From assembly GCA_963544395.1 (NCBI GenBank), contig CAUUFA010000001.1:66-64065 (forward strand): a stretch of 64,000 bases of DNA, written 5' to 3'. This DNA comes from an uncultured Bacilli bacterium (GTDB lineage: Bacteria > Bacillota_I > Bacilli_A > RFN20 > CAG-288). The position numbers were made by a program, and so were the translations under genes. Positions 6,761-45,989 of the stretch are shown piece by piece. The notes under the pieces were generated by a model. That model worked only from the letters and a program-made list of their open reading frames with translations. It had not been told where the DNA came from and ran no database searches. Position 1 is the first letter of the stretch; every line of letters starts with the position of its first letter.

Positions 6761-6761
6761 C

Positions 6762-26736: not shown

Positions 26737-26738
26737 AT

Positions 26739-30282: not shown

Positions 30283-30474
30283 ATGAAAGGGCAAATCGAG
30301 AAGTACAAGGAGTCTGGCGCCTTCGGCCTCGACCTGGACGACAGTTACTTCAAGGAGGAAATCGACTTCAAGCTCAACTGGGGGAAGAAGGAAAGGCAGA
30401 AGGGGTACCTATCGCTCGTGGAGAAATACTTGGACGAAATCTACGGATTCAAGGAGGGACTCAAGGATGGATAG
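30283..30474 (+). CDS. Small hypothetical protein (phage-module leader gene)
   Basis: 63 aa counted from the internal ATG. Overlap-coupled (ATGGATAG) to the next gene. The upstream part of the 117-aa ORF runs into the IS66 end, so the gene may be truncated. Confidence 0.35.
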   Translation: MKGQIEKYKESGAFGLDLDDSYFKEEIDFKLNWGKKERQKGYLSLVEKYLDEIYGFKEGLKDG

Positions 30475-30781
30475 CCTGGACATAGTGCTCACCATAATCA
30501 GCGTGTTGGGGACGCTCTCCAGCATCCTCTTCGCCTACCTCGCCTTCAAGAGGGGCGAGAGGAGTAGCCACAAGGACGAGGGGAAGAACGAGGGCGTGAT
30601 GCTCAGCGAAATCGGCTACATCAAGTCATCGATAGACAAGATAGAGAAATCGCTCAACCACCTCGAGGAGAGGTACAGCGAGCTTTCCAACAGGCTCGTG
30701 AAGGTGGAGGAGTCCACCAAGAACGCCCAAAAAAGAATCACCGAGCTTCATGAAGAGATGAAGGGAGGAAACAACCCATGA
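30467..30781 (+). CDS. N-terminal TM + coiled-coil protein (BhlA/UviB- or XhlA-like topology); paralogue of 41336-41629
   Basis: 104 aa with TM IVLTIISVLGTLSSILFAYLAF followed by a heptad-rich tail. By eye it is roughly 55-60% identical to the 97-aa protein at 41336-41629. ATGA-coupled to the holin. Confidence 0.6.
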   Translation: MDSLDIVLTIISVLGTLSSILFAYLAFKRGERSSHKDEGKNEGVMLSEIGYIKSSIDKIEKSLNHLEERYSELSNRLVKVEESTKNAQKRITELHEEMKGGNNP

Positions 30782-31170
30782 ACGAAATATTGCTGAACGT
30801 ATTGAGCTGCATAGTGACGGCGGTGATAATCCCGCTCATCACCCTGCTCGGCTCCAAGCTCATCAAGTGGATCTCGAGCAAGATCGGCAACGAGAAGACG
30901 GAGAAGTATATCACCGACGCCACGACCATCGTCCTCGATGCCGTCAAGTGCGTGTTCCAGACCTACGTCGACACCCTCAAGAAGGAGGGGAGCTTCGACA
31001 GGGACGCGCAGCTCACCGCGCTCAACAGGGCCAAGGACATCGTCCTTTCCCAGCTCAGCGAGGACGTCAGGGACTACATAAGCAAGAACTTCGGCGACGT
31101 CGATGCCTGGGTCACCACGCAGATCGAGGCGAGCATAGACACGCTTAAGACGATGAATTCGAAAACATAA
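30778..31170 (+). CDS. Phage holin (LL-H / holin superfamily 6-like)
   Basis: 130 aa with a single N-terminal TM (LLNVLSCIVTAVIIPLITLLG) and a long helical tail, similar to LL-H family holins as I remember them. Confidence 0.55.
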   Translation: MNEILLNVLSCIVTAVIIPLITLLGSKLIKWISSKIGNEKTEKYITDATTIVLDAVKCVFQTYVDTLKKEGSFDRDAQLTALNRAKDIVLSQLSEDVRDYISKNFGDVDAWVTTQIEASIDTLKTMNSKT

Positions 31171-31173: not shown

Positions 31174-31216
31174 AAGACCGCTCAAACCCAACAACGGTGT
31201 AGGGGTGAGCGGTCTT
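31174..31216. terminator. Hairpin between convergent holin and immunity genes
   Basis: 10-bp perfect stem AAGACCGCTC/GAGCGGTCTT with a 23-nt loop. Confidence 0.45.
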
Positions 31217-32130
31217 TAATATACATAATCCGCTAAAAAAATATAATCTGGCGACTCAACGAACGGAAGATAGACGTCATTAGGCATTACATTTGGATAA
31301 AGTTTGTACAAAATAGAGCCATCATCAGTTATCCTAAACTCATATTTATATATGGAAAATTTTTTATAGAGATATATGAGTTCCGATTCCCACCATGAGC
31401 AATAAAACCTTTTAGGGTCAAACGCGATGTAAATATTTTTTGCACAATTTAGGTTATTTTTCGTGATTGATAATTTAAAAGAAGGTTTTATATTTTGCGT
31501 TTTCTGAGTTGTATCAGAAAGCTTAAGTTCTTTTGAATATTTCTTACACACGCCATCGTACCAACCGACGACAACAGGCTTTTTGTTTAGCAATGTTTCT
31601 GTGTCTTTTAATTCCGAGGGGACAAGCACTAACGCCCATAGCAATTGCTTTTGAGCATAATTGGCCTCCAAGCAAACCGCGTAAAGATAATCGCCTTTGA
31701 AAGTTTTTCTGAGGATGACATCGCCTTTTTGAAAATCCAGTTTTGGCTTTTTTGGATATATGATTTGTTTTGGCGGTTCGTCCAGCTCTTTAAGAAATCG
31801 ATAAGCAAGTCTTTTGCGTTTATATAAATCAGATGACGATAAGGCCAGGCTGGCTAAGCCAGCCTGGTCATTTTCAATGAGTTTGTTCTTTTCATAAGGA
31901 TTTAATTTATATGGGAATCCGATTTTATGGAGGGCTTTCAGCAAAGCGAATGCAGTGCTTGCCCTCACATAGCCATCATCCAAAGAGTCTTCATAAATTC
32001 TCTTGGCAATTTTATAGGCTTTTTTGCCTAAATCGTCATCGCTTTTAAGAGAATTGTAATAAGCAAAGAACAAGTTGTATGCCTCTATGTATTCGTCGGA
32101 AGACGATATATTCAATGACCACATTCCCAT
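31216..32130 (-). CDS. Candidate cognate immunity protein of the Rhs toxin
   Basis: 304 aa, starting 27 nt downstream of the Rhs stop with a GAGGTGGTG RBS. Very AT-rich: ~22% GC in the sampled line 31321-31380. No recognisable family. Confidence 0.55.
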   Translation of the reverse strand: MGMWSLNISSSDEYIEAYNLFFAYYNSLKSDDDLGKKAYKIAKRIYEDSLDDGYVRASTAFALLKALHKIGFPYKLNPYEKNKLIENDQAGLASLALSSSDLYKRKRLAYRFLKELDEPPKQIIYPKKPKLDFQKGDVILRKTFKGDYLYAVCLEANYAQKQLLWALVLVPSELKDTETLLNKKPVVVGWYDGVCKKYSKELKLSDTTQKTQNIKPSFKLSITKNNLNCAKNIYIAFDPKRFYCSWWESELIYLYKKFSIYKYEFRITDDGSILYKLYPNVMPNDVYLPFVESPDYIFLADYVY

Positions 32131-32157
32131 ATTTATTCACCACCTCAATGACTATTA

Positions 32158-35100
32158 TTAGAAGAACAAAGTCCAGTTTTTAGGGTTCAAAATGGTAGAG
32201 AAGACTTCTTTCAACGCCTCTGGCGACGCTAGTTCGAGAAGCTTTTTACCAGGGCTTGCAATTTTGTTTTGTAAACCAGTGTATCTAGACATGTTCGCAG
32301 CTTCGACCATGAATGAGAATTTATCCCCTTTTCCGGTCAAATCACAATAACGGATTGATGAACCGTGATGTGCTTTAAGCGAGACTCTAGCTCTAGTCAA
32401 ATTTCCTTTCCCGACATAGACTGTTTTGCCACTGTCGTCCAGAATCTCGTAAGAGCCACAACCATTATGTACGATGAGCAAACACCCGCACAATACAACA
32501 TATGTGTGGAACCCTTGGACGTTCAGATTGTATGTTTTGATTGGAGACGCTAATTTTTCAAATCTAACGTCTTTTAGCATTTTATCACAGCCTTTTGTCT
32601 TGAGGCAATAGCCCTTCTTTAGCTCGGACGCCGGCTTCCATCCTTCTTCAGTGAGGAAGCGGTGTCCTGGCGTGCAGATGATCTCGTCGTTGCCGATGAA
32701 GAGATGAACGACCTCGGCGGTCTCGTTGACGTAGACGTCCAGAACCTCCTTTTCGTCGTAGATTCCAAGGTCTTCGTCGTAAGAGAGGACCTTATCGCCT
32801 TGTTGGATTTCGTCTATGGCTTTCATGCCGAGCGAGGTAGCGACGAGCGTGCCGGAGACGAAACAGTATGAAGGGTTCATAGCGCCGGATATCGCCCCGC
32901 CGATCGCTCCCCACATGAAGCCATCAGCTGCGCCTTCGACGGCACCGGTGAAGGCTCCTCTTAGGGCTCCTTCCCATGTCCCAGTCCTGATACCTTCCGT
33001 GATTGCTCCCTGGACCGCCCCGGTGACGGCACCGACGGCAGCGCCGATTGCAGCGCCTTTCACAGCTCCCACGAGCATGGAGGTGGCTATGCAGGAAGCG
33101 CCTAATCCCCCTGTGGCTACGACAGCAATCGCGCAGACAGCGATGACGGCGACGCCGATGAGCAGCTTGGTGAACCAGTTTCCCCATTGCCCATTCTCGT
33201 CCGTCATGCCGATGGGGTTGCAGGAGCAGTAGGCGAAGAGGTTCATGCCCATTGTCTCACCGATTTTTCCTATCTGGGAGTCCATGCTTATGAATCTGCC
33301 GAGGTCAGGGTCGTAGTATCTGGTCTTGAGATAATAGAACCCCGTCTCGTCGTCATGGAAGTATCCGCGGAACATGAAGTGGTTTAGCTTCGCAATCTCT
33401 TTTCCCATTGCCGAATCGTCGATGTGGACTTGAGGCACGCCCCAGTCGTCGTAGTCGTAGGAGACATAGGAATGTCCCTTTGCGTCGATGACGGAGGCGA
33501 TGTCGCCCATGATGTTCCTCTCGTAGAAGTACTCCTTGTTTTCGTAGGTAAAGCCGACGAGCTGCCCAGCCTCGTCGTAGTTGAAGAGGACGATCTTTTC
33601 GTCACCACCCTCGACCCTCTTCATGGCCGCAATCCTGTCTCCCTCGATCGAATAGAACTCGTCGAAGTTGCTAGAGCGTTTTGTCGTGCGAATTCCGTCG
33701 GCGTTGTATTCGTAGGTGGTGCCGTTGGTGGACTTCAGCCTTCTTCCGGACCAAGACATGCGGATGTCGATGCCCGGTTTTTTGATCCTCGTCGGATTCC
33801 CGACGAAGGAATCGCCGTACTCGATGAATGTGCCGTCGCTTCTGGACACCAGCCTGTCCTTTATCGACGTGTCGTATCCATAGATCATGCCGTCCTTCGA
33901 CGTGATGTTGTTGTTCGCGTCGTAGGCATAGGAATGGGCGATGCCGCCGTGGTTTGAGGAAACGAGCCTTCCGAGTCCATCGTAGGTATATGTCTTGTCC
34001 GCCGGCAGCGTGGCGTTGTCCGATCCAGCCTTCCTGTAGGAGACGGACGAGATGCTTCCGAGCTTATCGTATCCATAGGCGATCTCGTGTCCGAGGAAGT
34101 TAGTCTCCTTCTCGACCTTCGTCGTGGTCAGGCCGGAGTTTCTCCTGTAGGAATACGCCTTTTCAAGAGCGGCGCCGTCCGTGACAATTTCCTTGGAAGC
34201 CGTTCTTCCGAGCTCGTCGTAATGGGTTCTGACGGAAACGGAGCAGCCTTCTTCTGCGATGGCGGAGACCCTTTCGTCGTCGATAAGACGATCGGAGAAA
34301 GCCAGCATTTCGATGCAGCCCTCGAGATGGTCGATTGGCTTACCGTACCCGTCGACGTCGCATCCGACATAAGTGAGGCAGCCGTCTAAATCGATGGCGT
34401 TGCTGAAAGCAAACGAACCGCTGTTGCCGTCGAGATCGATTTTAACAGACTTGCCGTCCCATCGAACTGCCAGACGGTGCCACGAGTCGCTTCCGACCGA
34501 AACACCTCCCAAAGTGAATTGCTGACTTCCGCTTTCGATTCGAAGCTTTCCGGCTTCGAGGAAGACCTTGAGGACTTTCGTGCCTTTGCCGGCGGAAAGC
34601 AGGAATCGCTTCCCGGAGACGGATCCCTTCGGCTTGAAGCGCATCGTGATGGTCCCCTCGTCCTTCAACAGGAGGTCGTATGCCAGCTTGGATGGGTTGC
34701 CGCGGTTCAGATTGACGAGGGAGCCGTAGCTTCCGTATACATGGCGTCTTTCCTCCTGGTCGAACTCGAAGGCCCTCGACTTGTCGACCTTGAAGGATGC
34801 CTCCGTGTAGGAGAACTCCTTGGGTTGCATCCTGTTGAGCGAGACGAGGGAGCCATTAAGGGAGATGACGTCCATACCTTCGTAGACCTTGGCATTGGAC
34901 CACGTGACGCCGCTGGCACCGTAGATTGGCTCGCCGAGAAGATACTTCTTTCCTTCCTCGTAGATTCCCTTGTAGTCGTCCTCCTCGTAGTCATAGGAAC
35001 CGACCCCTGCGAAGGCGAGGCGGAAGGCCATGTTGATAGGGTATTCCTTCTTGAGGCTGCCGCCGTCGTCGAGTTTGTAGAGGTCCATGAGGGTGAGGCT

Positions 35101-38100
35101 CTGGGAAGGCTCGCCAATGTGGAAGTACTTGAGCACTTTGAAATCCTTTGAGCAGGCGTAGTCCGTGCTCTTCACCTCGCCGTTGAGGACGAACATGGCG
35201 TAGATCCTGTCTCCAGATTTGGCGAACTTCATGCCGACGAGGTTCCAAGTGTCCATGGAAATCTTTCCATTGGAAGTGAGGATAGGTTTTTTTCCAGCAC
35301 TGTAGTCGTAGATGGAGATAGTCCCATCCTTCTCGGCAATCAACGTGAGCCTCTCGGCCTTGTAGATTTTGCTCGCATAGGTGAAGATCTTCTGCTGCCC
35401 GGCAATTGTGCCACTTGGCTTAATCCATCCGAACGCGCTCCTGCGGAAGGTCATGTCCGCCTTCCAGGCCGAATAGGAGAAGCGGTTGCTGATAGTGGAC
35501 TCCGGCTTTCTTGTGGAGTTGAGCGTGTCGATGTCGTAGATGACTGTGGCATTGTCGCTCTTGAAGGAAAGAGACTGGACGGTGTCGCCCAATGGGGAAT
35601 CGTCGTCGACGTTTATGCTCTCGGTGTAGGTAGTGTTCAGAATCGGCCTGCCGCCGTACATGCCCTTGAGGCCGCTTCCACCCTTGATGATTTCGTCTGG
35701 AAAAGCTCGTGCGAGTCTGGCGAGGTATCCGCTTGGCGTGTAGTCGTTGTACTCGCATTTGTATTCGAAGTCGATGCCCCTTCTGATGCCGAAGACAGTC
35801 TCGTCGATTCTCTGGAGGTTCTTGAGGTTGTCGGTGAAGTAGTGGAAGGAATCGTCCCCATGCTCGGAGGTTCCGTCTTCCCAGACGACCTTCCTGTTGG
35901 CGACGTTCCCGTCGGAATCGTAGTCGATGTATTCCCGGCATTTGTTGACGGCATCGTATACGCATGTGGCCATGTCGAATTCGTCATAGGTGTATTCTGC
36001 CTGGCGGATGCCGTTGAAGTTCACGTAGGATAGCCTTAGCTTGCCGTCGTAGCCGAAGTCGTAGTAGCCGCATGTGTCGTCTTGTCCGAGCGTCTGTCTC
36101 GTTGGCAGTCCGGTGTTGACTCCGCCGACCGACTTGCCGTATTCGTTCGAAACGATAGTCTTCCCGTCGAGGGTGACCCTCTTGATCTTTTGTGCTCCGT
36201 CGTATTCGAATCTGTAGACGGCGCCAGAACCAGTGGTGATCTTTGTGACGTTGCCGTTCGCATCGTATTCGTACTGGCAGGAGGACGAAGTGCCGTTGAG
36301 GCTATGCAATTGCTTTGAGAGCTCGCCTGCCGAGTTGTATGTGTATGTCATTGTTGTGCCGTTGGCGGAGGTCTTCTTTATCTTCCTTCCGAGGGAATCG
36401 TATTCGTATCGGGTGACGTTCCCGTCGTCGTCCGTCTCCGAAAGGACGTTCTTGCGGTCGTCGTATGTCGAGGAGGTCTTGAGAATGTCGCCGGCGCTGG
36501 AGACGACCTTCGTCTCGGTTTTGCAGCCGTTGGAGTACTTGAACTGAACCTTGGTATTCTGATTGTTGGTGATTTGGGAGACGGTCCCATCCTCGTTGAA
36601 GGAGTATCTGTAGGAATCGCCGGATTCATCGGTTGCCTCCGTGACTCTTTCGTTCTTGTCGTAGGAGACCTCTGCGGTCGTTCCGTCGGCGTTCACCATT
36701 TGGGTCATGTCCTTCTTCTCGTTGTAGGTGTACTGCTTGCCGAAGGAATCGCGGTATAGCTGGACAGCCTCGAACCAAACGTCGTTTGCACTCCTCGAGA
36801 AGAGGGTCACCGTGACCTTGTCGTATGCGCGCTCCGCAACGATGCTTCTGGTGAGTACCTGCCAGGAGTCGAAGTTTGGGTCGAAGTCGAAGCTGTGCTC
36901 AGAAGTGGTGCCCGTATCCACGTAATGGATCTTGACGGACACGCCGAACCTGTCGTTTGATGACGTGGTGCCTTTGCCGAAGCAGGTGAGGAGCAGCTCG
37001 TCTCCGGCTCCGCCATGAATCTCTATCTCTCTCTTGGCGGACTTTTCCTTGGTGATGTCACCAGAAAGCTTCATTGCCCTTTGTCCGAGGAATCCTTGAT
37101 AGGTATATGCGTCATAGATTAGGCCGATTCCGTCCAACGCGCCGCAATTGCTCATTTCCCACGGGTGATTTCCACCTGTTTCGAACCAACCATCGACGAT
37201 GTAGTTGTGCCTGATCTGGTGGTCGCCGCGGCAAAGCTGGATGTCATCGACAAATGCGGTGTATCCGCTGCCCGAGAGGAAAATGCTAACGTAGACGCTC
37301 AAGTGCTTATAGGTGTTTCCGCTAGTATCCGGAATGAAGATACTTCTGTTGTTCGCTTCAACCCAGTCGAAGTTACCGGAGAAATCGTTCTGAAGGGTGT
37401 AGACGTCCGTCATCCATACTTCCTTGGTGACTGTGGAACCGCCACCGTTGGATTTTCCGCTCTTGGTCTTGGAACCGCCTGAAGAGCCAGAAATGGTGGT
37501 TTTTTTCGTATATTCGACCTTAAGCTGCACCTTGATGTCGCCTGCATTGATGGCGCCAGTGGTCTTCATCCCTTTGATGAACACCCTGAAGGCATATGTT
37601 CCGGGGACAGGGGTACTGACGTATTGGTTGATCTTGACGTCGGAGGTCCCTTTTTCTATCATGAGGCATTTTTGTCCGTAGACTCCTCCGTCGACCACCT
37701 TAATGCCGTCCCTGCTGCCGCTAGAAAGCTTCCAGGCAGCGTTCTCGCCGAAAAGAGTCTCCTCGGTCTCGAACGAGCTGTTGTCGATGACGTTCCTTTC
37801 GTTGACTTGGACATTTGATTCGGATGTGAGCCCGCCAAGTTTTCCGTCAATGACTTCGCCGTAGTTTCGGGTAATAGACTTAGCCTCGTCGTCGATCATG
37901 ACCTTGCATCGGCCGTATCCGTCGAAGAAGTAGTCGACGTAGCGTCCGGTGTAGTCAGTCACACGGGTTTTCATCCCATTGTAGTCGAAGGTGCTGAAGG
38001 GGTTGCCGGTCGATGACGTGCCGCATTCTGTCTTGTGCACCCTTCCGGAGCCTTCGTATCCGATTTTTTCATGAATGCCTCCCTTGGCATCTTCGGCCGT

Positions 38101-39327
38101 GAGGAGCCTTCCAGAGGAATCATAAGTGAAGGCAGCTTCCTTGACGATGGAGGAGCTTGTTCCGATATAGCCGTAAGCATATTTGAGGCTTCCGACATCC
38201 CACGCGAAAGTCGTTTTGGCGATTAGGGTGCCATTGCAATCGTAGGCCCTGGCAGTGCTGACCTGGCGATTGGAATAGGAAATGTCGAGTCTCTCGCCTT
38301 CGCTGTTTCTGATGGAGGTCGGGCCGCTGGAGCCGAGAGTGTATGTTACCGTCTTTCTGTTCTCCAGTTCGAGCTTCGCAACCTTGAAGTTGGAGCCGCT
38401 TTTCTCGAATATCATCTTGTTACCCTTCTTGTCCACGAGAATGGCCTTGTTCCCGTCATTGCCGACAAGGAGGTATGTGGCGTCCGAGAAGGAGAGGAAG
38501 TAGGATCCCTCGATGTCCTCTATGGGTTCCAAATCGTAATTGTCCTTGATGTCGTCAGGCTCGCACCTATAGTAGCGCGTGGTCTTTCCACTCGGCTCGA
38601 CGATGTCATAGGTGTTGTCGTCAATCTTACTCATCTCGTATTCCGAGTTGGCTTTCCATTTTCCGTTGGAATAGAAGAAATCCAAAGTAATCGGGGCCTT
38701 TTCGCTAGGTGTGCCTATGGCCTCGAATTTGTGGATCAATTCGCCGGTGGCCACGTTCATGCTGGTGACGCCGGCATACCCGACCTCGTTCTGGACATAC
38801 TCGTACATGGAGTCAAGCCCGGAGATTTGGGCGAGCTGCATCTGTGCCACCACCTCGGAGTTGATGACCTCTTCGTTGATTTCCTTGACCTCGACGGAGC
38901 CATTGTCAGCTACGACCTTGAAGTAGAGGTCGACGGAAGATTTTCCGTCAAGCTTCGCTCTCAAGTATTTGGAGATGTCGAATTCAACGACGATCTCCGC
39001 CTGTCCGTAAGGGGCACTCTTGCCATCAAAGTTGACTGTGTCGATTTTGGCTCCGAGACTGCTTGTGTTGTCATTATTGAAATCTTCTTCGGAGCTTTCG
39101 TAGATTGAAATGGTGGCACTTCTTGTCGGTTCTTTCGCAGCCATCCTTATTGAAGCCGCAGCCACTTTGTGGGAAGAGAAGGGAACATCCGTTATGGACA
39201 GTTTCGCCTTCATGCAGTTGCCGGTCTTGAGGGCAATATATCCGTCCCCGTCCGCAGTCGCATTGCAGTATTTTCCATCGAATTGCATTTTTGGCTTCGA
39301 TGAGCCGTTGTTAATGTTGATAATCAT
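32158..39327 (-). CDS. Rhs/YD-repeat polymorphic toxin (2389 aa) with LamG/CBM-like modules, Gly-zipper TM region, Hint domain and GIY-YIG-like C-terminal toxin
   Basis: Many YD repeats (YEYDSLGRKIKK, YEYDANGNVTKI, YTYDGLGRLVS, YAYDANNNITS). The core-closing motif is RYYDPDLGRFISMDS. The Hint module runs CFVSGTLV...LIVHN. The tail is SYEILDDSGKTVYVGKG..R. The N-terminus (MIININNGSSKPKMQFDGKY) has no signal peptide and no LXG/WXG-like helix pattern. Confidence 0.9.
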   Translation of the reverse strand: MIININNGSSKPKMQFDGKYCNATADGDGYIALKTGNCMKAKLSITDVPFSSHKVAAASIRMAAKEPTRSATISIYESSEEDFNNDNTSSLGAKIDTVNFDGKSAPYGQAEIVVEFDISKYLRAKLDGKSSVDLYFKVVADNGSVEVKEINEEVINSEVVAQMQLAQISGLDSMYEYVQNEVGYAGVTSMNVATGELIHKFEAIGTPSEKAPITLDFFYSNGKWKANSEYEMSKIDDNTYDIVEPSGKTTRYYRCEPDDIKDNYDLEPIEDIEGSYFLSFSDATYLLVGNDGNKAILVDKKGNKMIFEKSGSNFKVAKLELENRKTVTYTLGSSGPTSIRNSEGERLDISYSNRQVSTARAYDCNGTLIAKTTFAWDVGSLKYAYGYIGTSSSIVKEAAFTYDSSGRLLTAEDAKGGIHEKIGYEGSGRVHKTECGTSSTGNPFSTFDYNGMKTRVTDYTGRYVDYFFDGYGRCKVMIDDEAKSITRNYGEVIDGKLGGLTSESNVQVNERNVIDNSSFETEETLFGENAAWKLSSGSRDGIKVVDGGVYGQKCLMIEKGTSDVKINQYVSTPVPGTYAFRVFIKGMKTTGAINAGDIKVQLKVEYTKKTTISGSSGGSKTKSGKSNGGGSTVTKEVWMTDVYTLQNDFSGNFDWVEANNRSIFIPDTSGNTYKHLSVYVSIFLSGSGYTAFVDDIQLCRGDHQIRHNYIVDGWFETGGNHPWEMSNCGALDGIGLIYDAYTYQGFLGQRAMKLSGDITKEKSAKREIEIHGGAGDELLLTCFGKGTTSSNDRFGVSVKIHYVDTGTTSEHSFDFDPNFDSWQVLTRSIVAERAYDKVTVTLFSRSANDVWFEAVQLYRDSFGKQYTYNEKKDMTQMVNADGTTAEVSYDKNERVTEATDESGDSYRYSFNEDGTVSQITNNQNTKVQFKYSNGCKTETKVVSSAGDILKTSSTYDDRKNVLSETDDDGNVTRYEYDSLGRKIKKTSANGTTMTYTYNSAGELSKQLHSLNGTSSSCQYEYDANGNVTKITTGSGAVYRFEYDGAQKIKRVTLDGKTIVSNEYGKSVGGVNTGLPTRQTLGQDDTCGYYDFGYDGKLRLSYVNFNGIRQAEYTYDEFDMATCVYDAVNKCREYIDYDSDGNVANRKVVWEDGTSEHGDDSFHYFTDNLKNLQRIDETVFGIRRGIDFEYKCEYNDYTPSGYLARLARAFPDEIIKGGSGLKGMYGGRPILNTTYTESINVDDDSPLGDTVQSLSFKSDNATVIYDIDTLNSTRKPESTISNRFSYSAWKADMTFRRSAFGWIKPSGTIAGQQKIFTYASKIYKAERLTLIAEKDGTISIYDYSAGKKPILTSNGKISMDTWNLVGMKFAKSGDRIYAMFVLNGEVKSTDYACSKDFKVLKYFHIGEPSQSLTLMDLYKLDDGGSLKKEYPINMAFRLAFAGVGSYDYEEDDYKGIYEEGKKYLLGEPIYGASGVTWSNAKVYEGMDVISLNGSLVSLNRMQPKEFSYTEASFKVDKSRAFEFDQEERRHVYGSYGSLVNLNRGNPSKLAYDLLLKDEGTITMRFKPKGSVSGKRFLLSAGKGTKVLKVFLEAGKLRIESGSQQFTLGGVSVGSDSWHRLAVRWDGKSVKIDLDGNSGSFAFSNAIDLDGCLTYVGCDVDGYGKPIDHLEGCIEMLAFSDRLIDDERVSAIAEEGCSVSVRTHYDELGRTASKEIVTDGAALEKAYSYRRNSGLTTTKVEKETNFLGHEIAYGYDKLGSISSVSYRKAGSDNATLPADKTYTYDGLGRLVSSNHGGIAHSYAYDANNNITSKDGMIYGYDTSIKDRLVSRSDGTFIEYGDSFVGNPTRIKKPGIDIRMSWSGRRLKSTNGTTYEYNADGIRTTKRSSNFDEFYSIEGDRIAAMKRVEGGDEKIVLFNYDEAGQLVGFTYENKEYFYERNIMGDIASVIDAKGHSYVSYDYDDWGVPQVHIDDSAMGKEIAKLNHFMFRGYFHDDETGFYYLKTRYYDPDLGRFISMDSQIGKIGETMGMNLFAYCSCNPIGMTDENGQWGNWFTKLLIGVAVIAVCAIAVVATGGLGASCIATSMLVGAVKGAAIGAAVGAVTGAVQGAITEGIRTGTWEGALRGAFTGAVEGAADGFMWGAIGGAISGAMNPSYCFVSGTLVATSLGMKAIDEIQQGDKVLSYDEDLGIYDEKEVLDVYVNETAEVVHLFIGNDEIICTPGHRFLTEEGWKPASELKKGYCLKTKGCDKMLKDVRFEKLASPIKTYNLNVQGFHTYVVLCGCLLIVHNGCGSYEILDDSGKTVYVGKGNLTRARVSLKAHHGSSIRYCDLTGKGDKFSFMVEAANMSRYTGLQNKIASPGKKLLELASPEALKEVFSTILNPKNWTLFF

Positions 39328-39347
39328 GTCTTGTTTTTTCCTTTCTG

Positions 39348-40184
39348 TTAAATCAATGTCTTCGCATGTGCTATCGCGCTGATGTCCAGCCTTCGATAGG
39401 CATACCCTTGCGAGAGTATGTCGACCGGTATCCCGACAAGCTCCTGCACATGCTGCTTGAGCTTGTCTATGAGAGACGTCTGCTCCATATTCGTGACGCC
39501 GTCGAAGAACCTCACGAGGAGATCGACGTCACTTCCTTGGTTGAATGTTCCGTCGGCGTATGAGCCGTACAGCCACATCTTCTCGACCTTGTATCCGTTC
39601 ATCAGGACTAGCCTGTCATCTACAATTTTCGAGACGATCTCCTCCCTTGGGACGAGCCTGTGCGGTCTCTTGCATCCTTTCCTAGATGAAGAGAACATTG
39701 CCTGTTCCAGTAGCATCGCGTAGGTTTTTTGCTCGTTAGTCAGGCCTTCTACAATTTCTCCGTAGAAGGCGGGACGAATCGTAAGGCAGAGTCCCCTTCT
39801 CTCGTAGATATGGTTGATGGTGAGGCAGGCGAATTCGGCGAAGCGGTCAATTTCCGCTTTCCTTAGCGCCTCCAGGACATACATGGCCTGGGTGGCAGGT
39901 ACATCGTCGACGTATGAGAGATAGGCCAAGGAAACGGAATTTCCGGCCTCTGCGCCGATGTCAGCGCAGGTAAGAAGGAAGAACGCCTTTCTGACCAGTT
40001 CCTGCGTGAATGGCAGTCTCAACGATCGATGGAGGAAGGCACAGGAATCACATATGCACTTGAAATGCGATTCCTCGGTTCCCCTCGGGGTCATTTTTCC
40101 GAGCATCAATGCTTTCGTGACGTTCCTTTCCATCTGCATCCCCAGCATCCTCGATAGGAAGTGGGGGAAGTCCCTGTCGTGCAT
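39348..40184 (-). CDS. Helical N-domain + minimal nucleotidyltransferase (MNT, Pol-beta superfamily) fusion protein
   Basis: 278 aa. The C-terminal LYGSYADGTFNQGSDVDLLV...IPVDIL is the GS-x(10)-DxD plus third-Asp MNT motif. The N-terminal ~170 aa are unassigned. It is a paralogue of the next gene. Confidence 0.7.
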   Translation of the reverse strand: MHDRDFPHFLSRMLGMQMERNVTKALMLGKMTPRGTEESHFKCICDSCAFLHRSLRLPFTQELVRKAFFLLTCADIGAEAGNSVSLAYLSYVDDVPATQAMYVLEALRKAEIDRFAEFACLTINHIYERRGLCLTIRPAFYGEIVEGLTNEQKTYAMLLEQAMFSSSRKGCKRPHRLVPREEIVSKIVDDRLVLMNGYKVEKMWLYGSYADGTFNQGSDVDLLVRFFDGVTNMEQTSLIDKLKQHVQELVGIPVDILSQGYAYRRLDISAIAHAKTLI

Positions 40185-40185
40185 G

Positions 40186-41043
40186 TCAGAATATCCTCCT
40201 TCTGAATCGCCGAATGTCCTTCGACTCGCAGAAAATGTCGCGGGAGTCTATCACGTCGACGGGAATCGATAGGGATTGCTCGAGGAATCTCTCAAGTTCG
40301 GGGTGTTCCAGTCCTTCGGCGTTCACATCGACAACGACGTCGAGGTCGCTGTATTCGTTGAATAATCCGTTCACGTAGGAACCCGTCATCCAAAGGTGTC
40401 TTACGCCGTGATCGGCTTTAACCCTTTTCCTCATTTCCGACAGCTCCGAGGCAAGTTCGTCAGGCGAATAGTCCCTATGCTTCGTGTTGTAGCGCACTGA
40501 AACGGGGATGAGCCCAGTCATCATACCTTCCAGGTCATCCCTTTCCATCCCGGCATCCGCAAATTGTGCCAACGCCGAGAGGAACTGGTGGTAGAAGATG
40601 ATTGGAAGGTAGCAGTTTTTCGTCATGATCCAGTTGAAAATGCAGGCCGCCACCCTCGAAGTCTCGATTCCGAATATCCCGGTCCTGACGCAGCGGATGA
40701 ACATGGTTGTTGCTGCATCGGGTCCTTCGTCGTTCTGAGAGATCTCCAACTCCTTGGCAAGTCGTTTCCCTTTTTCCTCGGAGAATGATTGGCGAAGGGA
40801 CTTGGAAACCTTCGCAAGGGCATTTTGGAAGTCATCCTCAAGGAAGAAGGAGCGGTATATTTCTTGCCATAGGCGGAGATCCCTTTCGTCGTTGGTTTCC
40901 GGCTCCTTGAGATCGTGGTACACCTTGTTTTTCTCGAACATGCCCTCGAGCCTGTTGCGTTTCGGGTTCGACATGCAGAGGAACTTGAACGGAATCTTTG
41001 GGTTCATGGATCCGCATTTGAGAATCGTGAATTCTTTGATCAT
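40186..41043 (-). CDS. Helical N-domain + minimal nucleotidyltransferase (MNT) fusion protein
   Basis: 285 aa with C-terminal MTGSYVNGLFNEYSDLDVVVDV...IPVDVIDS. ATGA-coupled to the holin upstream. One nt separates its stop from the next ATG. Confidence 0.7.
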   Translation of the reverse strand: MIKEFTILKCGSMNPKIPFKFLCMSNPKRNRLEGMFEKNKVYHDLKEPETNDERDLRLWQEIYRSFFLEDDFQNALAKVSKSLRQSFSEEKGKRLAKELEISQNDEGPDAATTMFIRCVRTGIFGIETSRVAACIFNWIMTKNCYLPIIFYHQFLSALAQFADAGMERDDLEGMMTGLIPVSVRYNTKHRDYSPDELASELSEMRKRVKADHGVRHLWMTGSYVNGLFNEYSDLDVVVDVNAEGLEHPELERFLEQSLSIPVDVIDSRDIFCESKDIRRFRRRIF

Positions 41044-41330
41044 TCCTTTTCACCTCCATTTTTCTTTTGGAAAAGCTGCTTGATAATCTGATTGGCTCCC
41101 GTGGAACCTCCACCAGACACGAAGCCGATAACCAAGGCTTCGTAAACGTTTTCTGCATTCACAAGCTCAGGTGCAGTGAAATAGATGAGCACCGCTAGAA
41201 TCCCTCCGGCCACGATTGTGACGACGGGAATGAACTTATAGGCGCTATCGACTTTCTTGAAAATGAGCTTGTAGATTTCGCCAATGACATAGCAGCAGAC
41301 GACTATGATTGGCACATAGGCAATGTCCAT
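41040..41330 (-). CDS. Phage holin (phi-LC3 / Phage_holin_1-like)
   Basis: 96 aa with TM helices (VPIIVVCCYVIGEIY; FIPVVTIVAGGILAVLIYF) and the GFVSGGGSTGANQIIKQ motif typical of LC3-type holins. Confidence 0.6.
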   Translation of the reverse strand: MDIAYVPIIVVCCYVIGEIYKLIFKKVDSAYKFIPVVTIVAGGILAVLIYFTAPELVNAENVYEALVIGFVSGGGSTGANQIIKQLFQKKNGGEKE

Positions 41331-41335
41331 TTGGT

Positions 41336-41629
41336 TTAATTTCCTCCCTTCCCGCAGAGCTCGTCTATTCGCTTTTCGGCATTCTTGATGGATTCCTCGA
41401 GCTTTGCTAGACGCTCCGCGACATTGCGGTATCTTTCGTCGACGATTCCGATGTTCTTTTCGACCCTGTCGACACAGGCTTTGATGTATCCGATGTCGGA
41501 TAGCATCGTCCCTTCGTGCTTGCCTTCCTTGTGATGATCCATTCGCTCGTTTCGCCTAAAGGCCAATAGAGCGAAAAGGATGCTCGAAAGGGAAGCGACA
41601 AGGGAAGTGATAGAAATAGCTAATTCCAC
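41336..41629 (-). CDS. N-terminal TM + coiled-coil protein, paralogue of 30467-30781
   Basis: 97 aa with a GTG start 9 nt after AGGAGG. Contains TM ISITSLVASLSSILFALLAF and then a coiled coil. Confidence 0.6.
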   Translation of the reverse strand: MELAISITSLVASLSSILFALLAFRRNERMDHHKEGKHEGTMLSDIGYIKACVDRVEKNIGIVDERYRNVAERLAKLEESIKNAEKRIDELCGKGGN

Positions 41630-41653
41630 ATACCTTTACCTCCTATGTGATTA

Positions 41654-41722
41654 AGTGAAGGCTAGGAGAGCTTCGCCGCTTTCCACCCCCCCGACCCAAG
41701 CGGGTGGCTCTCTTCGCCTTCA
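41654..41722. promoter_or_regulatory. GC-rich compound palindrome between the sigma-like gene and the holin/Rhs operon
   Basis: Outer stem GTGAAGGC/GCCTTCAC plus GAGAGC/GCTCTC. The inner pairings CCACCC/GGGTGG and CCGCTT/AAGCGG are mutually exclusive. No U-tract on either strand. Confidence 0.5.
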
Positions 41723-41756
41723 CATGTAAAAGGAGAAAAAACGTCTTCTTGATAAC

Positions 41757-42320
41757 CTAATCGATGAAAGTTTTAAGTTTTTCCTCGATTTCCGCTGAGG
41801 CCTTGACGAGCCTTTTGTGAACGGATGGCTGGGATATGCCAAGGGCTTTTGCTGCGTTTCGCTCAGTGTCACCATTTATCCTTATAGATACGTATATGGT
41901 TCGGTCAGTCTCATCCATAGAAGAGATGGCGGCTTCAAAGGCATCCTGTATTTCAGAATATGAATAAGCCTTGCTAGGATCGTTTTCCGTATCGATAAAA
42001 TCGATGTGCGAATTGCCTTCTTGCATGGCTTCTATGGAAACAGCCGACCCAGCTCGGGAATGGTTTGGCCCGAATGGGCATTCCGTTGAACAGTTGAGGC
42101 GACATTTGACTGGAAGACCATTCTTATTGAAAAGGACGCATCTTGATTCCTCGTCCTTTTGCTTATATTCCTTTTCATCCATGGAACGCAGCATCCTGAA
42201 AAGGGCATAGTCGCACCAGATGCGCCCCTTATATTCCAAGTCGTAGTAACAAGGGGTCTCATCGGTCTTCTCGTAGCCCCATTTGTAGCCGTTTTCTTCA
42301 AAATAATTCTTATTTGTCAT
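41757..42320 (-). CDS. Sigma-70 region-4-type HTH protein with Cys-rich N-terminal domain
   Basis: The C-terminal DRTIYVSIRINGDTERNAAKALGISQPSVHKRLVKASAEIEEKL is a region 4.2-like HTH. Eight Cys lie in the N-terminal half (C..C...C...CRLNCSTEC). The start was set at MTNKN (GGAGGA RBS). Confidence 0.6.
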   Translation of the reverse strand: MTNKNYFEENGYKWGYEKTDETPCYYDLEYKGRIWCDYALFRMLRSMDEKEYKQKDEESRCVLFNKNGLPVKCRLNCSTECPFGPNHSRAGSAVSIEAMQEGNSHIDFIDTENDPSKAYSYSEIQDAFEAAISSMDETDRTIYVSIRINGDTERNAAKALGISQPSVHKRLVKASAEIEEKLKTFID

Positions 42321-42671: not shown

Positions 42672-43667
42672 ATGGATGACAAGATAACCTTTGCGAAATT
42701 TATCGATATTCTTTCAATTAGCAGGAAGAGCCCGACATACATTTTCCTTCCTGAGCTTTTGGATGCTTTTACAGGTTGGAAGTTGAATAATGGTGAACTG
42801 GATTTGCCAAACCTTTGCGACGAAGCAAATCCAAATACGCTGAAAGCGAAAGCCAACGGCAAAAGGGAGATTTCCAAGGAGGAAGCGACGACATTGCTCG
42901 AGAATTACGACCACGATGCCTTGGAAACCTATTTCTACGATTTGATATCGAACGTCCATCTGGTCGAGATAAGGAACGCCATCGTCCGTTATGGCTTCAA
43001 GTTAAAAACCAGCCTCGATGATTCTTCGATTCCAGAGATATGCGCGAAGCTGATGAAGAAGATAATCTATGATCTGAGCGTTGGCAGGAAGGAAACGTTG
43101 CCTCCTCTCGAGTATCTTGATTTCAAAAGCCTAAGCGCCACGGCCTTCAAGGCAGCTGAATTCAAGGACGGTGCCCTTTACATAAATGGCGAGAAGATTC
43201 CGATATCGAGGAAGCTTTCGCAGATGGACATCAAAGTCGACGGCAATCTGCTTTTCGTCAAGAGGCTGTTCGAGGTCTATTCCGAGGCGCTTGGCAAATC
43301 GGTTTCGGAGCCAAAGGATCTTCTCGGCACAAAATTCGAAAGGCATCTCTCCGAGCACACCAAGTTCTACTTCGAGGCGAGGTACAAGGGAAATGCCGCA
43401 AGGGAATTGTTCGACGAAGGCGAAAGCGAATTCAACGCCATAAAAGATGAGATAGAAGCAGGCATTTTCGATGCCCTTTATTTCGGAAAATACGACAGCG
43501 GCATGGATAGGTTGACAAAGGTCATGAACGCTGTTGCGGCGAATCTCCAGCTGAACAGCTCTTTGCTTTTGAACATCAGGGGCTTCATCAACGTTCCTAC
43601 CAGAAAGGGGATCCTTCATATCCTGGTCGAGGTGGGAAGGATTAAGTCATGGGTGAACCCGGAATGA
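42672..43667 (+). CDS. Effector-position protein of a Lamassu/ABC-3C-like operon (unknown N-domain + helical C-terminal adaptor-like domain)
   Basis: 331 aa and helical, with no catalytic motif recognised. The C-terminal ...DRLTKVMNAVAANLQ...TRKGILHILVEVGRIKSWV resembles ABC-3C effector C-terminal domains as I remember them. ATGA-coupled to the next gene. Confidence 0.55.
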   Translation: MDDKITFAKFIDILSISRKSPTYIFLPELLDAFTGWKLNNGELDLPNLCDEANPNTLKAKANGKREISKEEATTLLENYDHDALETYFYDLISNVHLVEIRNAIVRYGFKLKTSLDDSSIPEICAKLMKKIIYDLSVGRKETLPPLEYLDFKSLSATAFKAAEFKDGALYINGEKIPISRKLSQMDIKVDGNLLFVKRLFEVYSEALGKSVSEPKDLLGTKFERHLSEHTKFYFEARYKGNAARELFDEGESEFNAIKDEIEAGIFDALYFGKYDSGMDRLTKVMNAVAANLQLNSSLLLNIRGFINVPTRKGILHILVEVGRIKSWVNPE

Positions 43668-44101
43668 GCAGCAGCGTTTTCAACTCGGTATACGAGACGA
43701 GCTTGAGGCTCGTGTTGCTGCTTTCTGCTTTCGAGGAGCCATTAACCTCCGAAGAGCTTTTCGCCTTCGATTTCGTATCCACGTACGGGAAGGAGTTCGG
43801 CTTGACCGACGTCAGCTTGAACGGGGACAGCGAATTTACCATGAGCAAAGCAACCCTGAGGAGGAAAAGGGTCATGGAATCGATTTCGTATTTAGTAAGA
43901 AACGGTTATGCGGCACCTGTCGCAGTGGAGGATGTGGTAAGGTACGAACTGCTCGAAAAAGGGGAAAAGCTATATAAAAAAATATATTCCACTGGATATG
44001 CCGAGAAATATATCTTGACCGTGGAGCTGGGAAAAAATGGCCTATTTTCCAAAAACGAAAGCGCCTTGAATCTAATACTCGAGAAAATAAAGGAGGGGTA
44101 A
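43664..44101 (+). CDS. Middle-component-like small protein (LmuC / ABC-3C MC position)
   Basis: 145 aa from MSSSVF (ATGA overlap with the upstream stop). Helical with a probable winged-helix region (RRKRVMESISYLVRNGYA). It sits between the effector and the ATPase. Confidence 0.5.
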   Translation: MSSSVFNSVYETSLRLVLLLSAFEEPLTSEELFAFDFVSTYGKEFGLTDVSLNGDSEFTMSKATLRRKRVMESISYLVRNGYAAPVAVEDVVRYELLEKGEKLYKKIYSTGYAEKYILTVELGKNGLFSKNESALNLILEKIKEG

Positions 44102-44104
44102 TGA

Positions 44105-45928
44105 ATGGACGACATTTACTTCAGGAAAGTCATCGCCCGCGGAATTGGCAAGAGGGAATCATCCGTGGAGCTCTCGCGTGGGCTCAATATAATCTGCGGT
44201 CCGTCAAATACTGGGAAAACCCTGATATTCAAGGTGTTCAAGCAGGTATTCGGTGCGGAAAACAAAAAAGGGCTAAAAAACGACGATGAGCCATTTATCA
44301 TCGAGAATGATACGGGATACACCGACTTTTCGCTCGTGATATCAAAAAACGGCGACGATGTCATGCTTACGAGGAAAATCGATTCGGACATAATAAGCGT
44401 CGAAAGCAATAGCCCTTATGTGGAGTCTGGCGATTACGCATATACGACCAAGAGGGGTTACAAGCTCATCAACGAAGCTCTTTTGCAGATTTTCAATGTC
44501 GAGCCGTTCAAGCTCCCGTCCAAAAAGGACGGTACGCCCACCTCTTTCTCATTGAAATTCCTCGACTACCTATTTTTGGCCGACGAAGAGCGAATCGACA
44601 AAGGCAGCCAAATCCTGCTGTTCCACAGTCAGAAATACGACTCGACGACACAATCGCAGGCCAACCTGCTTTACCTGCTTTACGATCTGGATTTTTCGCG
44701 TTTCCTGAAAAACGAGGACACGGAAAAGGCCACGATTAGAAGAGGCGCGGTCAGAAAATACATAAACGCCAGGATCGAAAGCAATCAGAAGGAGATCTCC
44801 TCGCTCGAAAAGAAATTAAAGGAACTACCGATGGTAGAGAGCGACTCGAACGTACTTCAAAGCGAGCTTGACAAAATTAGGGAGAAGATTGATGGCAAGT
44901 ATAAAGAGAGCTCTGATTTGGAAGGCTCTATAAGAGAGCTGAGCGAAAAGATGGAGTCAGACGGAATGCTGATTGAGAGGCTTGAGAGCCTTTCGTCCCA
45001 ATACACGTCGGATTTGGAAAGGCTGAATTTCATCATCTCCGGAAAGGACGACTTGGACTCCAACGAAGAAGAGCACGAATGCCCATATTGCCATAGCCGA
45101 ATCCGCGAGGAAAAAGGTCAAGTCAGCATAGAAGAATTCAAAAACGAGGCTAAATCGGCTCTCAATAATCTCAACGACGTTTCAGAAACCCTTTCCGACC
45201 TATTGAAAGAGAACAAGGAAGACGAAAAGAAGCATAAGGCGTATCAGGAAAAGCTTTCGGAGGTCGGGCTAGACATCGGCAAACTGTCGAAAGAAAGAGA
45301 AAATCTCGAAAGCACATTGAGGCGATTCGATGAGCTTATCGAGTGTCAAAAGCGCATCAAATACCTGCAAAATGACAACGAAAACCTGGAAAAAGATTTA
45401 TTCGAAATATCAGGGCAAGTCAAAGTCAAAAGGGAGGAATTTAAACCGAGTGAGCTTTTCCAAGCATCCTTTTTCCAGGCAATGACCACAAACATCAGGG
45501 GAATCATGGGCTATTGCGGCGACCAAAGATACATCTCAACCGAGTTCGACAGGGCGAGCTTCGACATTTCAGTTCGTGGTCAAAGCAAATCGGCGAACAA
45601 CGGGAAGGGATACAGATCCTTCCTCAATTCCGTGACCCTCCTGTCGTTTAGGAAATTTCTTGATGAAAAAGGAAAGCACAGACTGCCCGTTTACGTCTTG
45701 GACTCCCCACTGAAGAACCTTGACGTTGGTGTGCTCGACAGGGACAACATAAAGGACAGGTTCTTCAGATACCTCACGGAAGCCTCAAGGCTTGGGCAGC
45801 TAATAATCATCGAAAACACGAACAACTTCACCATGACAGATGAATTGAGGCAAAATGCCAACGTCATAGAATTCACTCACGGTGCGAAGGAAGGCCGTTA
45901 TGGATTCTTGCTGGATCATCATGATTGA
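44105..45928 (+). CDS. Rad50/SMC-like ABC ATPase with coiled-coil insertion and central CxxC (LmuB-like)
   Basis: 607 aa with an AAGGAGGGG RBS. Walker A GPSNTGKT (aa 32-39), a ~220-aa heptad-rich insertion, CPYC at aa 326-329, and a C-terminal GKGYRSFLN...LPVYVLDSPLKNLD (signature-like plus Walker B/D-loop). Confidence 0.8.
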   Translation: MDDIYFRKVIARGIGKRESSVELSRGLNIICGPSNTGKTLIFKVFKQVFGAENKKGLKNDDEPFIIENDTGYTDFSLVISKNGDDVMLTRKIDSDIISVESNSPYVESGDYAYTTKRGYKLINEALLQIFNVEPFKLPSKKDGTPTSFSLKFLDYLFLADEERIDKGSQILLFHSQKYDSTTQSQANLLYLLYDLDFSRFLKNEDTEKATIRRGAVRKYINARIESNQKEISSLEKKLKELPMVESDSNVLQSELDKIREKIDGKYKESSDLEGSIRELSEKMESDGMLIERLESLSSQYTSDLERLNFIISGKDDLDSNEEEHECPYCHSRIREEKGQVSIEEFKNEAKSALNNLNDVSETLSDLLKENKEDEKKHKAYQEKLSEVGLDIGKLSKERENLESTLRRFDELIECQKRIKYLQNDNENLEKDLFEISGQVKVKREEFKPSELFQASFFQAMTTNIRGIMGYCGDQRYISTEFDRASFDISVRGQSKSANNGKGYRSFLNSVTLLSFRKFLDEKGKHRLPVYVLDSPLKNLDVGVLDRDNIKDRFFRYLTEASRLGQLIIIENTNNFTMTDELRQNANVIEFTHGAKEGRYGFLLDHHD

Positions 45929-45989
45929 ACTTAATTTATTATGTGGAGTTTAGCATACCTAAATGATAAAATAATGAAGGGTGCTAATA

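Follow-up and report, generated by a model that had tools for sequence, protein, structure and literature searches.

In a 64,000-nucleotide (nt) stretch of contig CAUUFA010000001.1 from an uncultured Bacilli bacterium (assembly GCA_963544395.1; the whole stretch is hereafter the window, 64 kb), we find seven minus-strand genes that encode a 270-kDa Rhs polymorphic toxin with no signal peptide together with a sigma-70-family-like regulator, an XhlA-like membrane protein, a phage-type holin, two accessory proteins that combine a Fic fold with an MntA-type (MNT) nucleotidyltransferase (NTase) domain, and a candidate immunity protein. We consider it fairly probable, from gene content and conservation, that these genes form a self-contained, sigma-controlled and holin-mediated release cassette for an Rhs polymorphic toxin held in the cytoplasm, and that the cassette is a counterpart of the TcdR/TcdE and UviA/UviB systems. 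Holin-gated release of the Rhs protein had been put forward in a first-pass annotation of this DNA. The idea gains support from a linkage kept across lineages, from low ratios of non-synonymous to synonymous substitution rates (dN/dS) and from a toxin that has no export signal, while the release step itself is one that we infer.

A holin module and a signal-less Rhs toxin in one operon

The genes extend from 42320 to 31216, and the open reading frame (ORF) listing and family scans agree with the order and coordinates of the first-pass annotation. The regulator comes first (187 amino acids, aa; 41757..42320) and is followed, after a spacer of 127 nt that contains an imperfect palindrome, by the XhlA-like protein (97 aa, 41336..41629), which has a GTG start codon, an N-terminal transmembrane (TM) helix and a C-terminal coiled coil. 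This protein matches phrog_1863 (7e-16) and, weakly, PF10779 (XhlA) and phrog_1193. Next in line is a Hol44 holin (96 aa, 41040..41330), which matches the full PF16079 model (holin superfamily V, 3e-13) and phrog_1129, annotated as 'holin' (6e-14). Accessory protein 1 (285 aa, 40186..41043), accessory protein 2 (278 aa, 39348..40184), the Rhs toxin (2389 aa, 32158..39327) and the candidate immunity protein (304 aa, 31216..32130) complete the set. Downstream of the start of the XhlA-like gene the junctions measure 5, -4, 1, 20 and 27 nt.

The large protein is an Rhs toxin by its matches to PF05593 (5e-24), TIGR01643 and TIGR03696 (70 bits, cut-off 32.5). It starts with a family-specific N-terminal domain (aa 1-170, nt 38818-39327) and has RHS repeats forming a YD shell into which lectin-like domains are inserted, among them Laminin_G_3 (nt 34267-34668). 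The Rhs-associated core (aa 1972-2047, nt 33187-33414) is followed by a Gly-zipper/TM segment (aa 2087-2134, nt 32926-33069), a PT-HINT domain (aa 2161-2279, nt 32491-32847) and a variable C-terminal toxin tip of about 110 aa (nt 32161-32490). Sec signals were judged by the highest 15-residue mean hydropathy within the first 45 aa. This value is 0.14 for the Rhs protein of the window and -0.5 to 0.8 in the signal-less family; the two relatives of the Sec type, L022 and L023, reach 2.7-2.9. The N-terminus is indeed not hydrophobic, as the first-pass annotation had it. The same annotation saw no LXG/WXG-type N-terminus and regarded a T7SS- or Sec-type signal detected by profile methods as a refutation of its idea; a profile check of the Rhs protein against Pfam and NCBIfam finds neither an LXG nor a WXG domain. 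A profile of the N-terminus yields a weak alginate-lyase match alone (0.018), and the first 240 aa retrieve 7 representatives among 1.84 billion proteins, all of them aligned from residue 1.

Compared with its close relatives, the Rhs protein keeps 90-99% identity through about 2250 aa, but this falls to about 20% across the C-terminal ~110 aa. Along with the tip, the gene downstream of Rhs changes as well (21-24% identity in the close relatives), and orphan modules of tip and immunity genes lie further downstream in several of the related loci. A swapped tip with a co-varying downstream gene is the signature of an inter-bacterial polymorphic toxin. GC content is 0.53 in the Rhs body, 0.43 in the tip and 0.36 in the immunity candidate, a protein that has no TM helix and matches no family and no PDB entry. 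Assignment of the tip (32161-32490) to the GIY-YIG-type nucleases on the basis of the motif SYEILDDSGKTVYVGKG was considered and found no support in Pfam, NCBIfam or the PDB.

Both small membrane proteins are under purifying selection. Across five within-lineage pairwise comparisons, dN/dS is 0.06-0.23 for the XhlA-like gene and 0.06-0.49 for the holin; values are mostly 0.06-0.3, and the lone 0.49 comes from a pair of very low divergence. The rest of the cassette gives ratios that are just as low or higher, and all copies are intact. Intact ORFs and low dN/dS indicate that the holin genes are kept by selection and are not prophage debris.

None of the ORFs scanned in the window, including the ~28-kb genomic island in which the operon lies and its flanks, matches a peptidoglycan-hydrolase family, which bears out the earlier claim that the island encodes no such enzyme. 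A type VII secretion system (T7SS) component or other export apparatus was likewise not found among the ORFs scanned in the 64 kb.

The gene set is conserved across distant lineages

A search with the single sequence of accessory protein 2 returns only relatives of at least 86% identity that have the same island, and an island shared by close relatives alone proves little about deep conservation. Relatives were sought starting from the Rhs protein and not from the holin, by scanning genomes, metagenomes and viral contigs with an alignment of its first 900 aa; further contexts were collected with a profile of accessory protein 1, using our own ORF calls and iterated hidden Markov models. Counting loci with at least 2.5 kb upstream of Rhs, and delimiting lineages (lettered below) by eye from their differing Rhs N-termini, we obtain 15 lineages of the signal-less Rhs family, with Rhs proteins 25-40% identical to that of the window. 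Identities this low exclude a single recently spread element. The 2.9 million viral contigs contain no relative of the Rhs family.

A Fic/MNT gene stands directly before the Rhs gene in all 15 lineages, and 12 have a sigma-like gene. The XhlA-like gene is paired with a Hol44 holin in ten lineages and with an LL-H holin in one, a Bacillales metagenome-assembled genome (MAG; L016). Another small membrane protein is found in three lineages (Tissierellaceae L015/L045; L037; L047), and one lineage (L054/L055) has no holin or sigma gene. The first-pass annotation had proposed a survey of holin adjacency to Rhs genes, and took its idea to be refuted should the holin genes prove to be prophage leftovers that are not linked to Rhs in other genomes. 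This refutation fails: an XhlA-like gene and a recognised holin accompany Rhs in 11 of the 15 lineages. As hosts the records name Tissierellaceae, Bacillales, Acholeplasmatales, Ca. Izimaplasma and uncultured Firmicutes/Bacilli, and relatives also come from human-gut and other MAGs. Acholeplasmatales and Izimaplasma have no cell wall.

Gene order and orientation vary among these loci. The XhlA-like/LL-H pair of L016 is divergent from its sigma-NTase-NTase-Rhs genes, the sigma gene of L015 is on the opposite strand, and the arrangement is shuffled in L037 and L047 too, with the genes still together. Such variation in order and strand, with the genes kept together, argues for selection on the linkage and not for a frozen accident. 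Every cassette gene is missing from the two signal-peptide-bearing relatives, one of which belongs to Lachnospiraceae (L022) and the other to Erysipelotrichaceae (L023). No peptidoglycan hydrolase appears in the precomputed Pfam lists of seven related contexts.

Several lineages depart from the common gene content. In lineages F (L037, 6303-7805) and M (L047, 7049-8953; Ca. Izimaplasma, wall-less), the XhlA-like/Hol44 pair is replaced by a conserved 95-98-aa soluble helical protein, a second sigma-like gene and, on the opposite strand, a membrane protein of 120-124 aa with 2-3 TM helices that is common to both; none of the three matches a family. Three additional genes separate the sigma gene from the XhlA-like gene in lineage B2 (L052, 4778-7412), and they encode a PGAP1-like hydrolase of 423 aa, a protein of 159 aa and a third NTase protein. 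A minimal variant in L054 (6621-14821) and L055 consists of one Fic/MNT gene, Rhs and a small downstream gene.

A sigma-family regulator and a shared promoter-like motif

The regulator of the window matches Sigma70_r4_2 (PF08281; 27.1 bits, cut-off 25.7) and TIGR02937 in its C-terminal part only. Its start codon is the ATG at 42320, with a GGAGG 7 nt upstream, and its N-terminal half is Cys-rich and matches no family. A profile built from 12 cassette regulators gives a clearer picture, because in a PDB search it matches whole sigma factors (8x6g_H, 2e-10 over profile positions 6-199) as well as FliA and SigW. Homologues from L015, L016, L047, L052 and L053 exceed the TIGR02937 cut-off, three of the five over nearly the whole model. 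By these profile matches, the cassette regulators are true members of the sigma family. Placement in the TcdR/BotR subfamily is unsupported, the NCBIfam BotR model giving 20.7 bits against a cut-off of 138.

A promoter-like motif, GGTTATCA-N18-TTTTACAT-GTGAAGG (41717..41757, minus strand), begins at the last base of the sigma stop codon. Four lineages (A, B, E and G) have GGTTRTYA at this site after the sigma stop, followed about 17-19 nt further on by a TAxAxGTGARGG block; a fifth lineage has a comparable -10 region and hairpin. In L024 the motif is additionally present upstream of the sigma gene. An 8-mer of this kind is expected by chance about once per 16 kb per strand, so that four occurrences within a few bases of the stop codon are far beyond chance. 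The operon contains no further copy, and a single copy fits one transcript. Both the match of the regulator family to whole sigma factors and the common motif between the sigma and XhlA-like genes lend weight to the earlier suggestion that the adjacent sigma-like regulator may switch on the operon.

The palindrome of the first-pass annotation corresponds to a stem-loop (41656..41722, minus strand) at the start of the presumed 5' untranslated region (UTR) of a transcript running from the XhlA-like to the immunity gene, and it starts exactly at the GTGAAGG of the motif. In lineages A, B, C, E and G the hairpin starts at the identical UGA(A/G)GG position, and its arms differ yet remain complementary (GAAGGC/GCCUUC, GAGGGGG/CUCCCUC, GAGAG/CUCUC). 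The predicted stability of the window stem-loop is -33.8 kcal/mol with a z-score of about -1.6 to -2.0, and stabilities across lineages are modest (z-scores of -0.4 to -3.7); the individual z-scores being weak, the case for the hairpin is made by its position and its covarying arms. We dropped the idea of a strongly stable structure given a z-score of just -1.6 to -2.0. The hairpin is also not an intrinsic terminator, since it has no U-tract, and a generic terminator scan does not list it. We read it as a putative 5'-UTR stem-loop or operator.

Fic-fold/MNT proteins are the most constant partners of Rhs

The two proteins encoded between the holin and Rhs genes were overlooked as a constant feature by the first-pass annotation, yet they are the most constant partners of Rhs, and this constancy makes them the best marker of the system. 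Accessory protein 1 matches NTP_transf_2 (2.5e-10) and is predicted to consist of a degenerate Fic fold and an MntA-type NTase; accessory protein 2 is a paralogue with the same architecture (NTP_transf_2/Polbeta). The family is rare, with 33 clusters among 5.8 billion proteins. AlphaFold2 models reach a pLDDT of 82.7 and a pTM of 0.80 for accessory protein 1, and a pLDDT of 81.9 for accessory protein 2. In Foldseek searches the C-terminus of accessory protein 1 matches MntA (7bxo) and its N-terminus matches 3cuc, FICD and CdFic (TMt up to 0.64, probability 1.0), while accessory protein 2 matches 7bxo (MntA) and the Fic structures 8uqu and 4x2c. Taking both paralogues together, the N-terminal domains match 8uqu, CdFic (4x2c/4x2e), 3cuc and FICD with probability 1.0 and TM-scores of 0.43-0.64, and the C-terminal NTase domains match 7bxo, 1no5 and 1wot.

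The NTase carboxylates (GS...SDxD...D) are invariant across lineages in both paralogue alignments. The Fic motif HPFx[DE]GN[G/K]R occurs in neither alignment, and Fic matches at the sequence level are non-significant (E ~0.5); we accept a Fic relationship at the level of the predicted fold. No HEPN/HepT partner is matched in the operon, where the neighbour of each Fic-fold/MNT protein is the other one. We think that the pair may act on Rhs or on the timing of release by nucleotidylylation.

The N-terminus of Rhs (39280-39327; consensus N.T..PKI.V.SKFL) resembles that of accessory protein 1 (40960-41043; YNPKIDFKML) across lineages, and the first ~40 residues of accessory protein 1 are modelled by AlphaFold2 with lower confidence. 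The common peptide may be a recognition peptide or a coincidence.

A proposed release mechanism and its alternatives

We propose that the sigma-70-family regulator would turn on a single long transcript from the promoter just downstream of its own gene. From this transcript the XhlA-like protein, the holin, the two Fic-fold/NTase proteins, the signal-less 270-kDa Rhs protein and the immunity protein would be made. The Rhs protein would fold and build up in the cytoplasm with its toxic tip inside the YD shell, until the XhlA-like protein and the holin permeabilise the membrane of the producer and allow it to exit. With no endolysin encoded, crossing the wall would rely on host autolysins triggered by membrane depolarisation, a step that would not be needed in wall-less hosts. 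Release would probably be fatal to a subpopulation of producers. Outside, Rhs would attack competing bacteria by delivering the TM/Gly-zipper segment, PT-HINT and the toxin module, and kin would be shielded by the immunity protein.

Several observations weigh against this proposal. A 270-kDa protein must pass a Gram-positive wall with no hydrolase encoded, and the window scans reveal no endolysin gene or remnant, in contrast to the loci of the large clostridial toxins (LCTs) and of Bcn5, every known one of which has an endolysin or a fragment of one according to a review (PMC9527704). Region 4 is the sole sigma region detectable in the regulator of the window. The membrane proteins of three lineages are not recognisable as holins. 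The L054/L055 loci are set among the housekeeping genes for RNase Y, MiaB and MiaA with no holin or sigma gene within 6 kb, which means that a linked holin is not obligatory. Sec-type controls number two, and many of the loci are metagenomic with gene calls of our own. Finally, the cassette is located in defence islands, and the holin module could serve defence instead.

This last point arises from the neighbours of the cassette. Divergent from the sigma gene lies a Lamassu (ABC-3C) system with the genes LmuA, LmuC and LmuB (42672..45928, plus strand). PADLOC identifies LmuA (4e-49, full length), LmuC (2e-30) and LmuB (3e-142), and the corresponding Pfam families are CTD6, MC2 and AAA_23 (the ABC ATPase). 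Lamassu is back-to-back with the Rhs cassette in six lineages in which the Rhs proteins are 25-40% identical to that of the window; in relatives it is found at 2760-6065 (L027), 1570-4805 (L049), 586-3737 (L052), 4276-7505 (L053) and 6814-7788 (L043). It directly abuts the XhlA-like gene in lineages D and H, which have no sigma gene there. The other neighbours of the cassette comprise HamA together with a helicase, genes of the Pycsar type and an MNT/HepT pair. The adjacency of Lamassu could reflect co-inheritance of island genes or functional coupling.

The best-surviving alternative, which we nevertheless hold to be unlikely, builds on this setting: the sigma, XhlA-like, holin and Fic/MNT genes would be an abortive-infection or suicide module, perhaps working with Lamassu, and Rhs would be co-inherited with it and exit by an unlinked route. 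The divergent Lamassu in six lineages and the other defence neighbours speak for it, MNT domains are typical of toxin-antitoxin and defence systems, and L054/L055 retain Rhs with no holin. It is the Lamassu adjacency and this holin-less lineage that keep the alternative alive. The operon structure makes it less likely, however, as the holin, Fic/MNT and Rhs genes overlap or abut (a 4-nt overlap and gaps of 1 and 20 nt) and a single promoter-like motif precedes them. So do the lineages E, I, J, F and M, in which the linkage persists without Lamassu, and the Sec-type Rhs relatives, which have no such module. No alternative export apparatus was seen in the 64 kb through which Rhs could leave, and the swapped tip with its immunity gene is typical of inter-bacterial competition.

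Rather less probable still is that Rhs is not released at all, and acts as an intracellular effector of the producer or as a contact weapon displayed on the surface after holin-assisted insertion into the membrane. The Gly-zipper/TM segment after the core could anchor a fragment in the membrane, and the N-terminal and inserted lectin-like domains suggest surface binding. In characterised Rhs proteins, however, autoproteolysis cleaves off the post-core part with the toxin, and the TM segment, lying after the Rhs core, belongs to that part. To our knowledge no holin inserts large proteins into membranes, and an immunity gene co-varying with the tip fits attack on neighbours. Barely credible is a third alternative, in which a prophage lysis cassette is decaying and its holin genes are neighbours of Rhs by chance. 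Both small proteins belong to phage protein families, and insertion sequence (IS) elements and a second holin pair are nearby, but the comparative data contradict it: the linkage recurs across 11 lineages at Rhs identities of only 25-40%, the ORFs are undamaged and give dN/dS of 0.06-0.3, and we detect no phage structural genes in the island, no relatives in viral contigs and no phage DNA similarity.

Returning to holin-mediated release, an extended version of it would be a hitherto undescribed system, dedicated to the release of signal-less Rhs toxins, in Bacillota and in relatives of theirs that have no wall. It would comprise a sigma factor of its own that fires the one operon, an endolysin-free XhlA-like/holin opening, an obligatory Fic/MNT pair and, possibly, a Lamassu-wired altruistic lysis; for this combination as a whole we would give a little less than an even chance. 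The Fic/MNT pair may then mark or prime Rhs, or time the holin, by nucleotidylylation, and where Lamassu is back-to-back with the cassette the detection of invading DNA may feed into an altruistic lysis that sets the toxin free.

Comparison with known toxin-release systems

The cassette is most reminiscent of the LCT loci (TcdR/TcdE/TcdA/TcdB of the C. difficile PaLoc, TcsL of P. sordellii and TpeL of C. perfringens), in which a sigma-70-family factor and a phage-type holin stand beside a huge signal-less toxin. A further likeness is the promoter-like motif that precedes the toxin operon and that, in L024, is found ahead of the sigma gene as well. In contrast, the cargo here is an anti-bacterial Rhs with an immunity gene and not a glucosylating host toxin, the holin is of the Hol44 type and is paired with an XhlA-like protein, Fic/MNT genes are present, and the sigma factors miss the BotR model (20.7 bits, cut-off 138). 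The BCN5 locus of C. perfringens pIP404 likewise encodes a toxin directed at other bacteria together with a sigma factor (UviA) and a small membrane protein, the BhlA-type holin UviB. Proteins of the BhlA type, UviB among them, combine a TM helix with a coiled coil, as does the XhlA-like protein described here. The Bcn5 cargo is unrelated, however, and that locus has no Fic/MNT pair and no second holin. Release of the LCTs depends on the holin, and Bcn5 loci always include an N-acetylmuramoyl-L-alanine amidase, according to the same review (PMC9527704); the shared plan of LCT and Bcn5 loci, a sigma-70-family factor with a holin and a signal-less toxin, is described in that review and in three further papers (PMC3369941, PMC8878733, PMC12150058).

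In type 10 secretion, a phage lysis module frees the chitinases of Serratia and the Tc toxins of Yersinia entomophaga, according to two reports (PMC10847048, PMC4259817). The re-use of a lysis module for large cytoplasmic cargo, including the Rhs-type TcC, resembles what we propose, and there, according to the same reports, a specialised subpopulation lyses. Type 10 secretion operates in Gram-negative hosts, which depend on a peptidoglycan hydrolase and a spanin, and the cassette encodes neither; regulators and accessory genes differ as well, whereas the holin is common to both (PF16079, 3e-13, in the window). With no endolysin, an unmatched sigma subfamily, another cargo and a new Fic/MNT pair, the cassette is not a member of the LCT, Bcn5 or type 10 families.

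Individual components have relatives elsewhere. The xhlA-xhlB-xlyA genes of PBSX in Bacillus subtilis likewise encode an XhlA TM/coiled-coil protein followed by a holin, and it is from a PBSX-type lysis cassette that the XhlA-like and holin genes probably evolved. Here, by comparison, there is no xlyA-type amidase and no prophage, and toxin-system genes follow the holin. Sec-dependent Rhs/WapA-type toxins and T7SS-dependent LXG toxins share the Rhs shell, core, variable tip and adjacent immunity gene, but the protein of the window has no signal peptide or LXG/WXG domain and carries a family-specific N-terminal domain from residue 1. The accessory proteins match MntA of the MntA/HepT type VII toxin-antitoxin system in sequence and fold and keep the catalytic GS...DxD...D residues; they differ in having no HEPN/HepT partner and in occurring as two tandem paralogues ahead of the Rhs gene. 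With Fic AMPylases they share the N-terminal fold and not the active-site motif, which is absent.

This gene set, recurring in distantly related bacteria, probably represents an undescribed way of releasing such toxins. Full-text searches turned up no report of an Rhs or polymorphic toxin with a linked holin in Gram-positive bacteria, in keeping with the view of the first-pass annotation that the operon organisation had not been described for Gram-positive Rhs toxins; coverage was incomplete, and an earlier description is possible. A 2012 catalogue of polymorphic-toxin trafficking makes no mention of holins, and the 2022 review of holin-mediated translocation makes none of Rhs (PMC9527704). 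A new Gram-positive polymorphic toxin system reported in 2022 is a different, S8-peptidase system, and for bacterial teneurin-like YD proteins that have no signal peptide, a 2026 paper allows for routes as yet unknown (PMC13018210). How giant signal-less toxins leave Gram-positive cells is debated even for C. difficile TcdA and TcdB, with secretion and targeted lysis as the options.

Judged by sequence, what is new here relative to known holin-dependent toxin release is the cargo, the accessory proteins and the absence of an endolysin gene. The cassette would provide a second, independent and compact case of a holin module kept with a signal-less giant toxin across deep lineages, in this instance endolysin-free. 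It makes testable whether a holin alone is sufficient for release, what the Fic/MNT proteins contribute and whether toxin release is coupled to defence. If the proposed mechanism is true, it would add a trafficking mode to the polymorphic toxin catalogue and a search rule for gut metagenomes.

A second holin pair and the host island

A second XhlA-like gene (30467-30781, plus strand; phrog_1863, 3e-19), 54% identical to the first, overlaps an LL-H-type holin gene (30778-31170, plus strand; phrog_13712 'holin', 1e-28). This pair, missed by the first-pass annotation, is convergent on the immunity gene of the operon and adjoins IS66 fragments. It was not seen in the close relative L001, and in the Bacillales MAG L016 an XhlA-like/LL-H pair is the only holin module of the cassette. 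The pair of the window may or may not be part of the system. Among phages, the closest homologue of the LL-H holin comes from an Anaeroplasmataceae phage and is 53% identical. Searches of GenBank phages give two weak holin matches and no XhlA-like match, and neither the island nor the second holin pair has DNA similarity to them.

The host island of about 28 kb extends from a tRNA-Arg gene (20140-20216) to about 48.2 kb, and its flanks are housekeeping genes (those for EF-Ts, S2, RNase J and Maf, and others). The end of tRNA-Arg is not repeated in att-type fashion at the far side of the island, and no phage structural genes were found in a scan of the island. A serine recombinase (23973-25508) is encoded next to tRNA-Arg, and around it are four ORFs of 217-476 aa (21204-22634, 23330-23983, 25930-26751 and 26739-27404) with no Pfam or PADLOC match. 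Besides the IS66 fragments, the island contains two identical IS copies in direct repeat (27491-29359 and 46292-48160; 1869 bp each), each with a 560-aa DDE transposase and 30-bp terminal inverted repeats. The two copies bracket the Rhs cassette and Lamassu in a composite-transposon-like arrangement. The second copy cuts an ORF for a helix-turn-helix and Dam-like methyltransferase protein (45981-46328), which ends inside the IS end.

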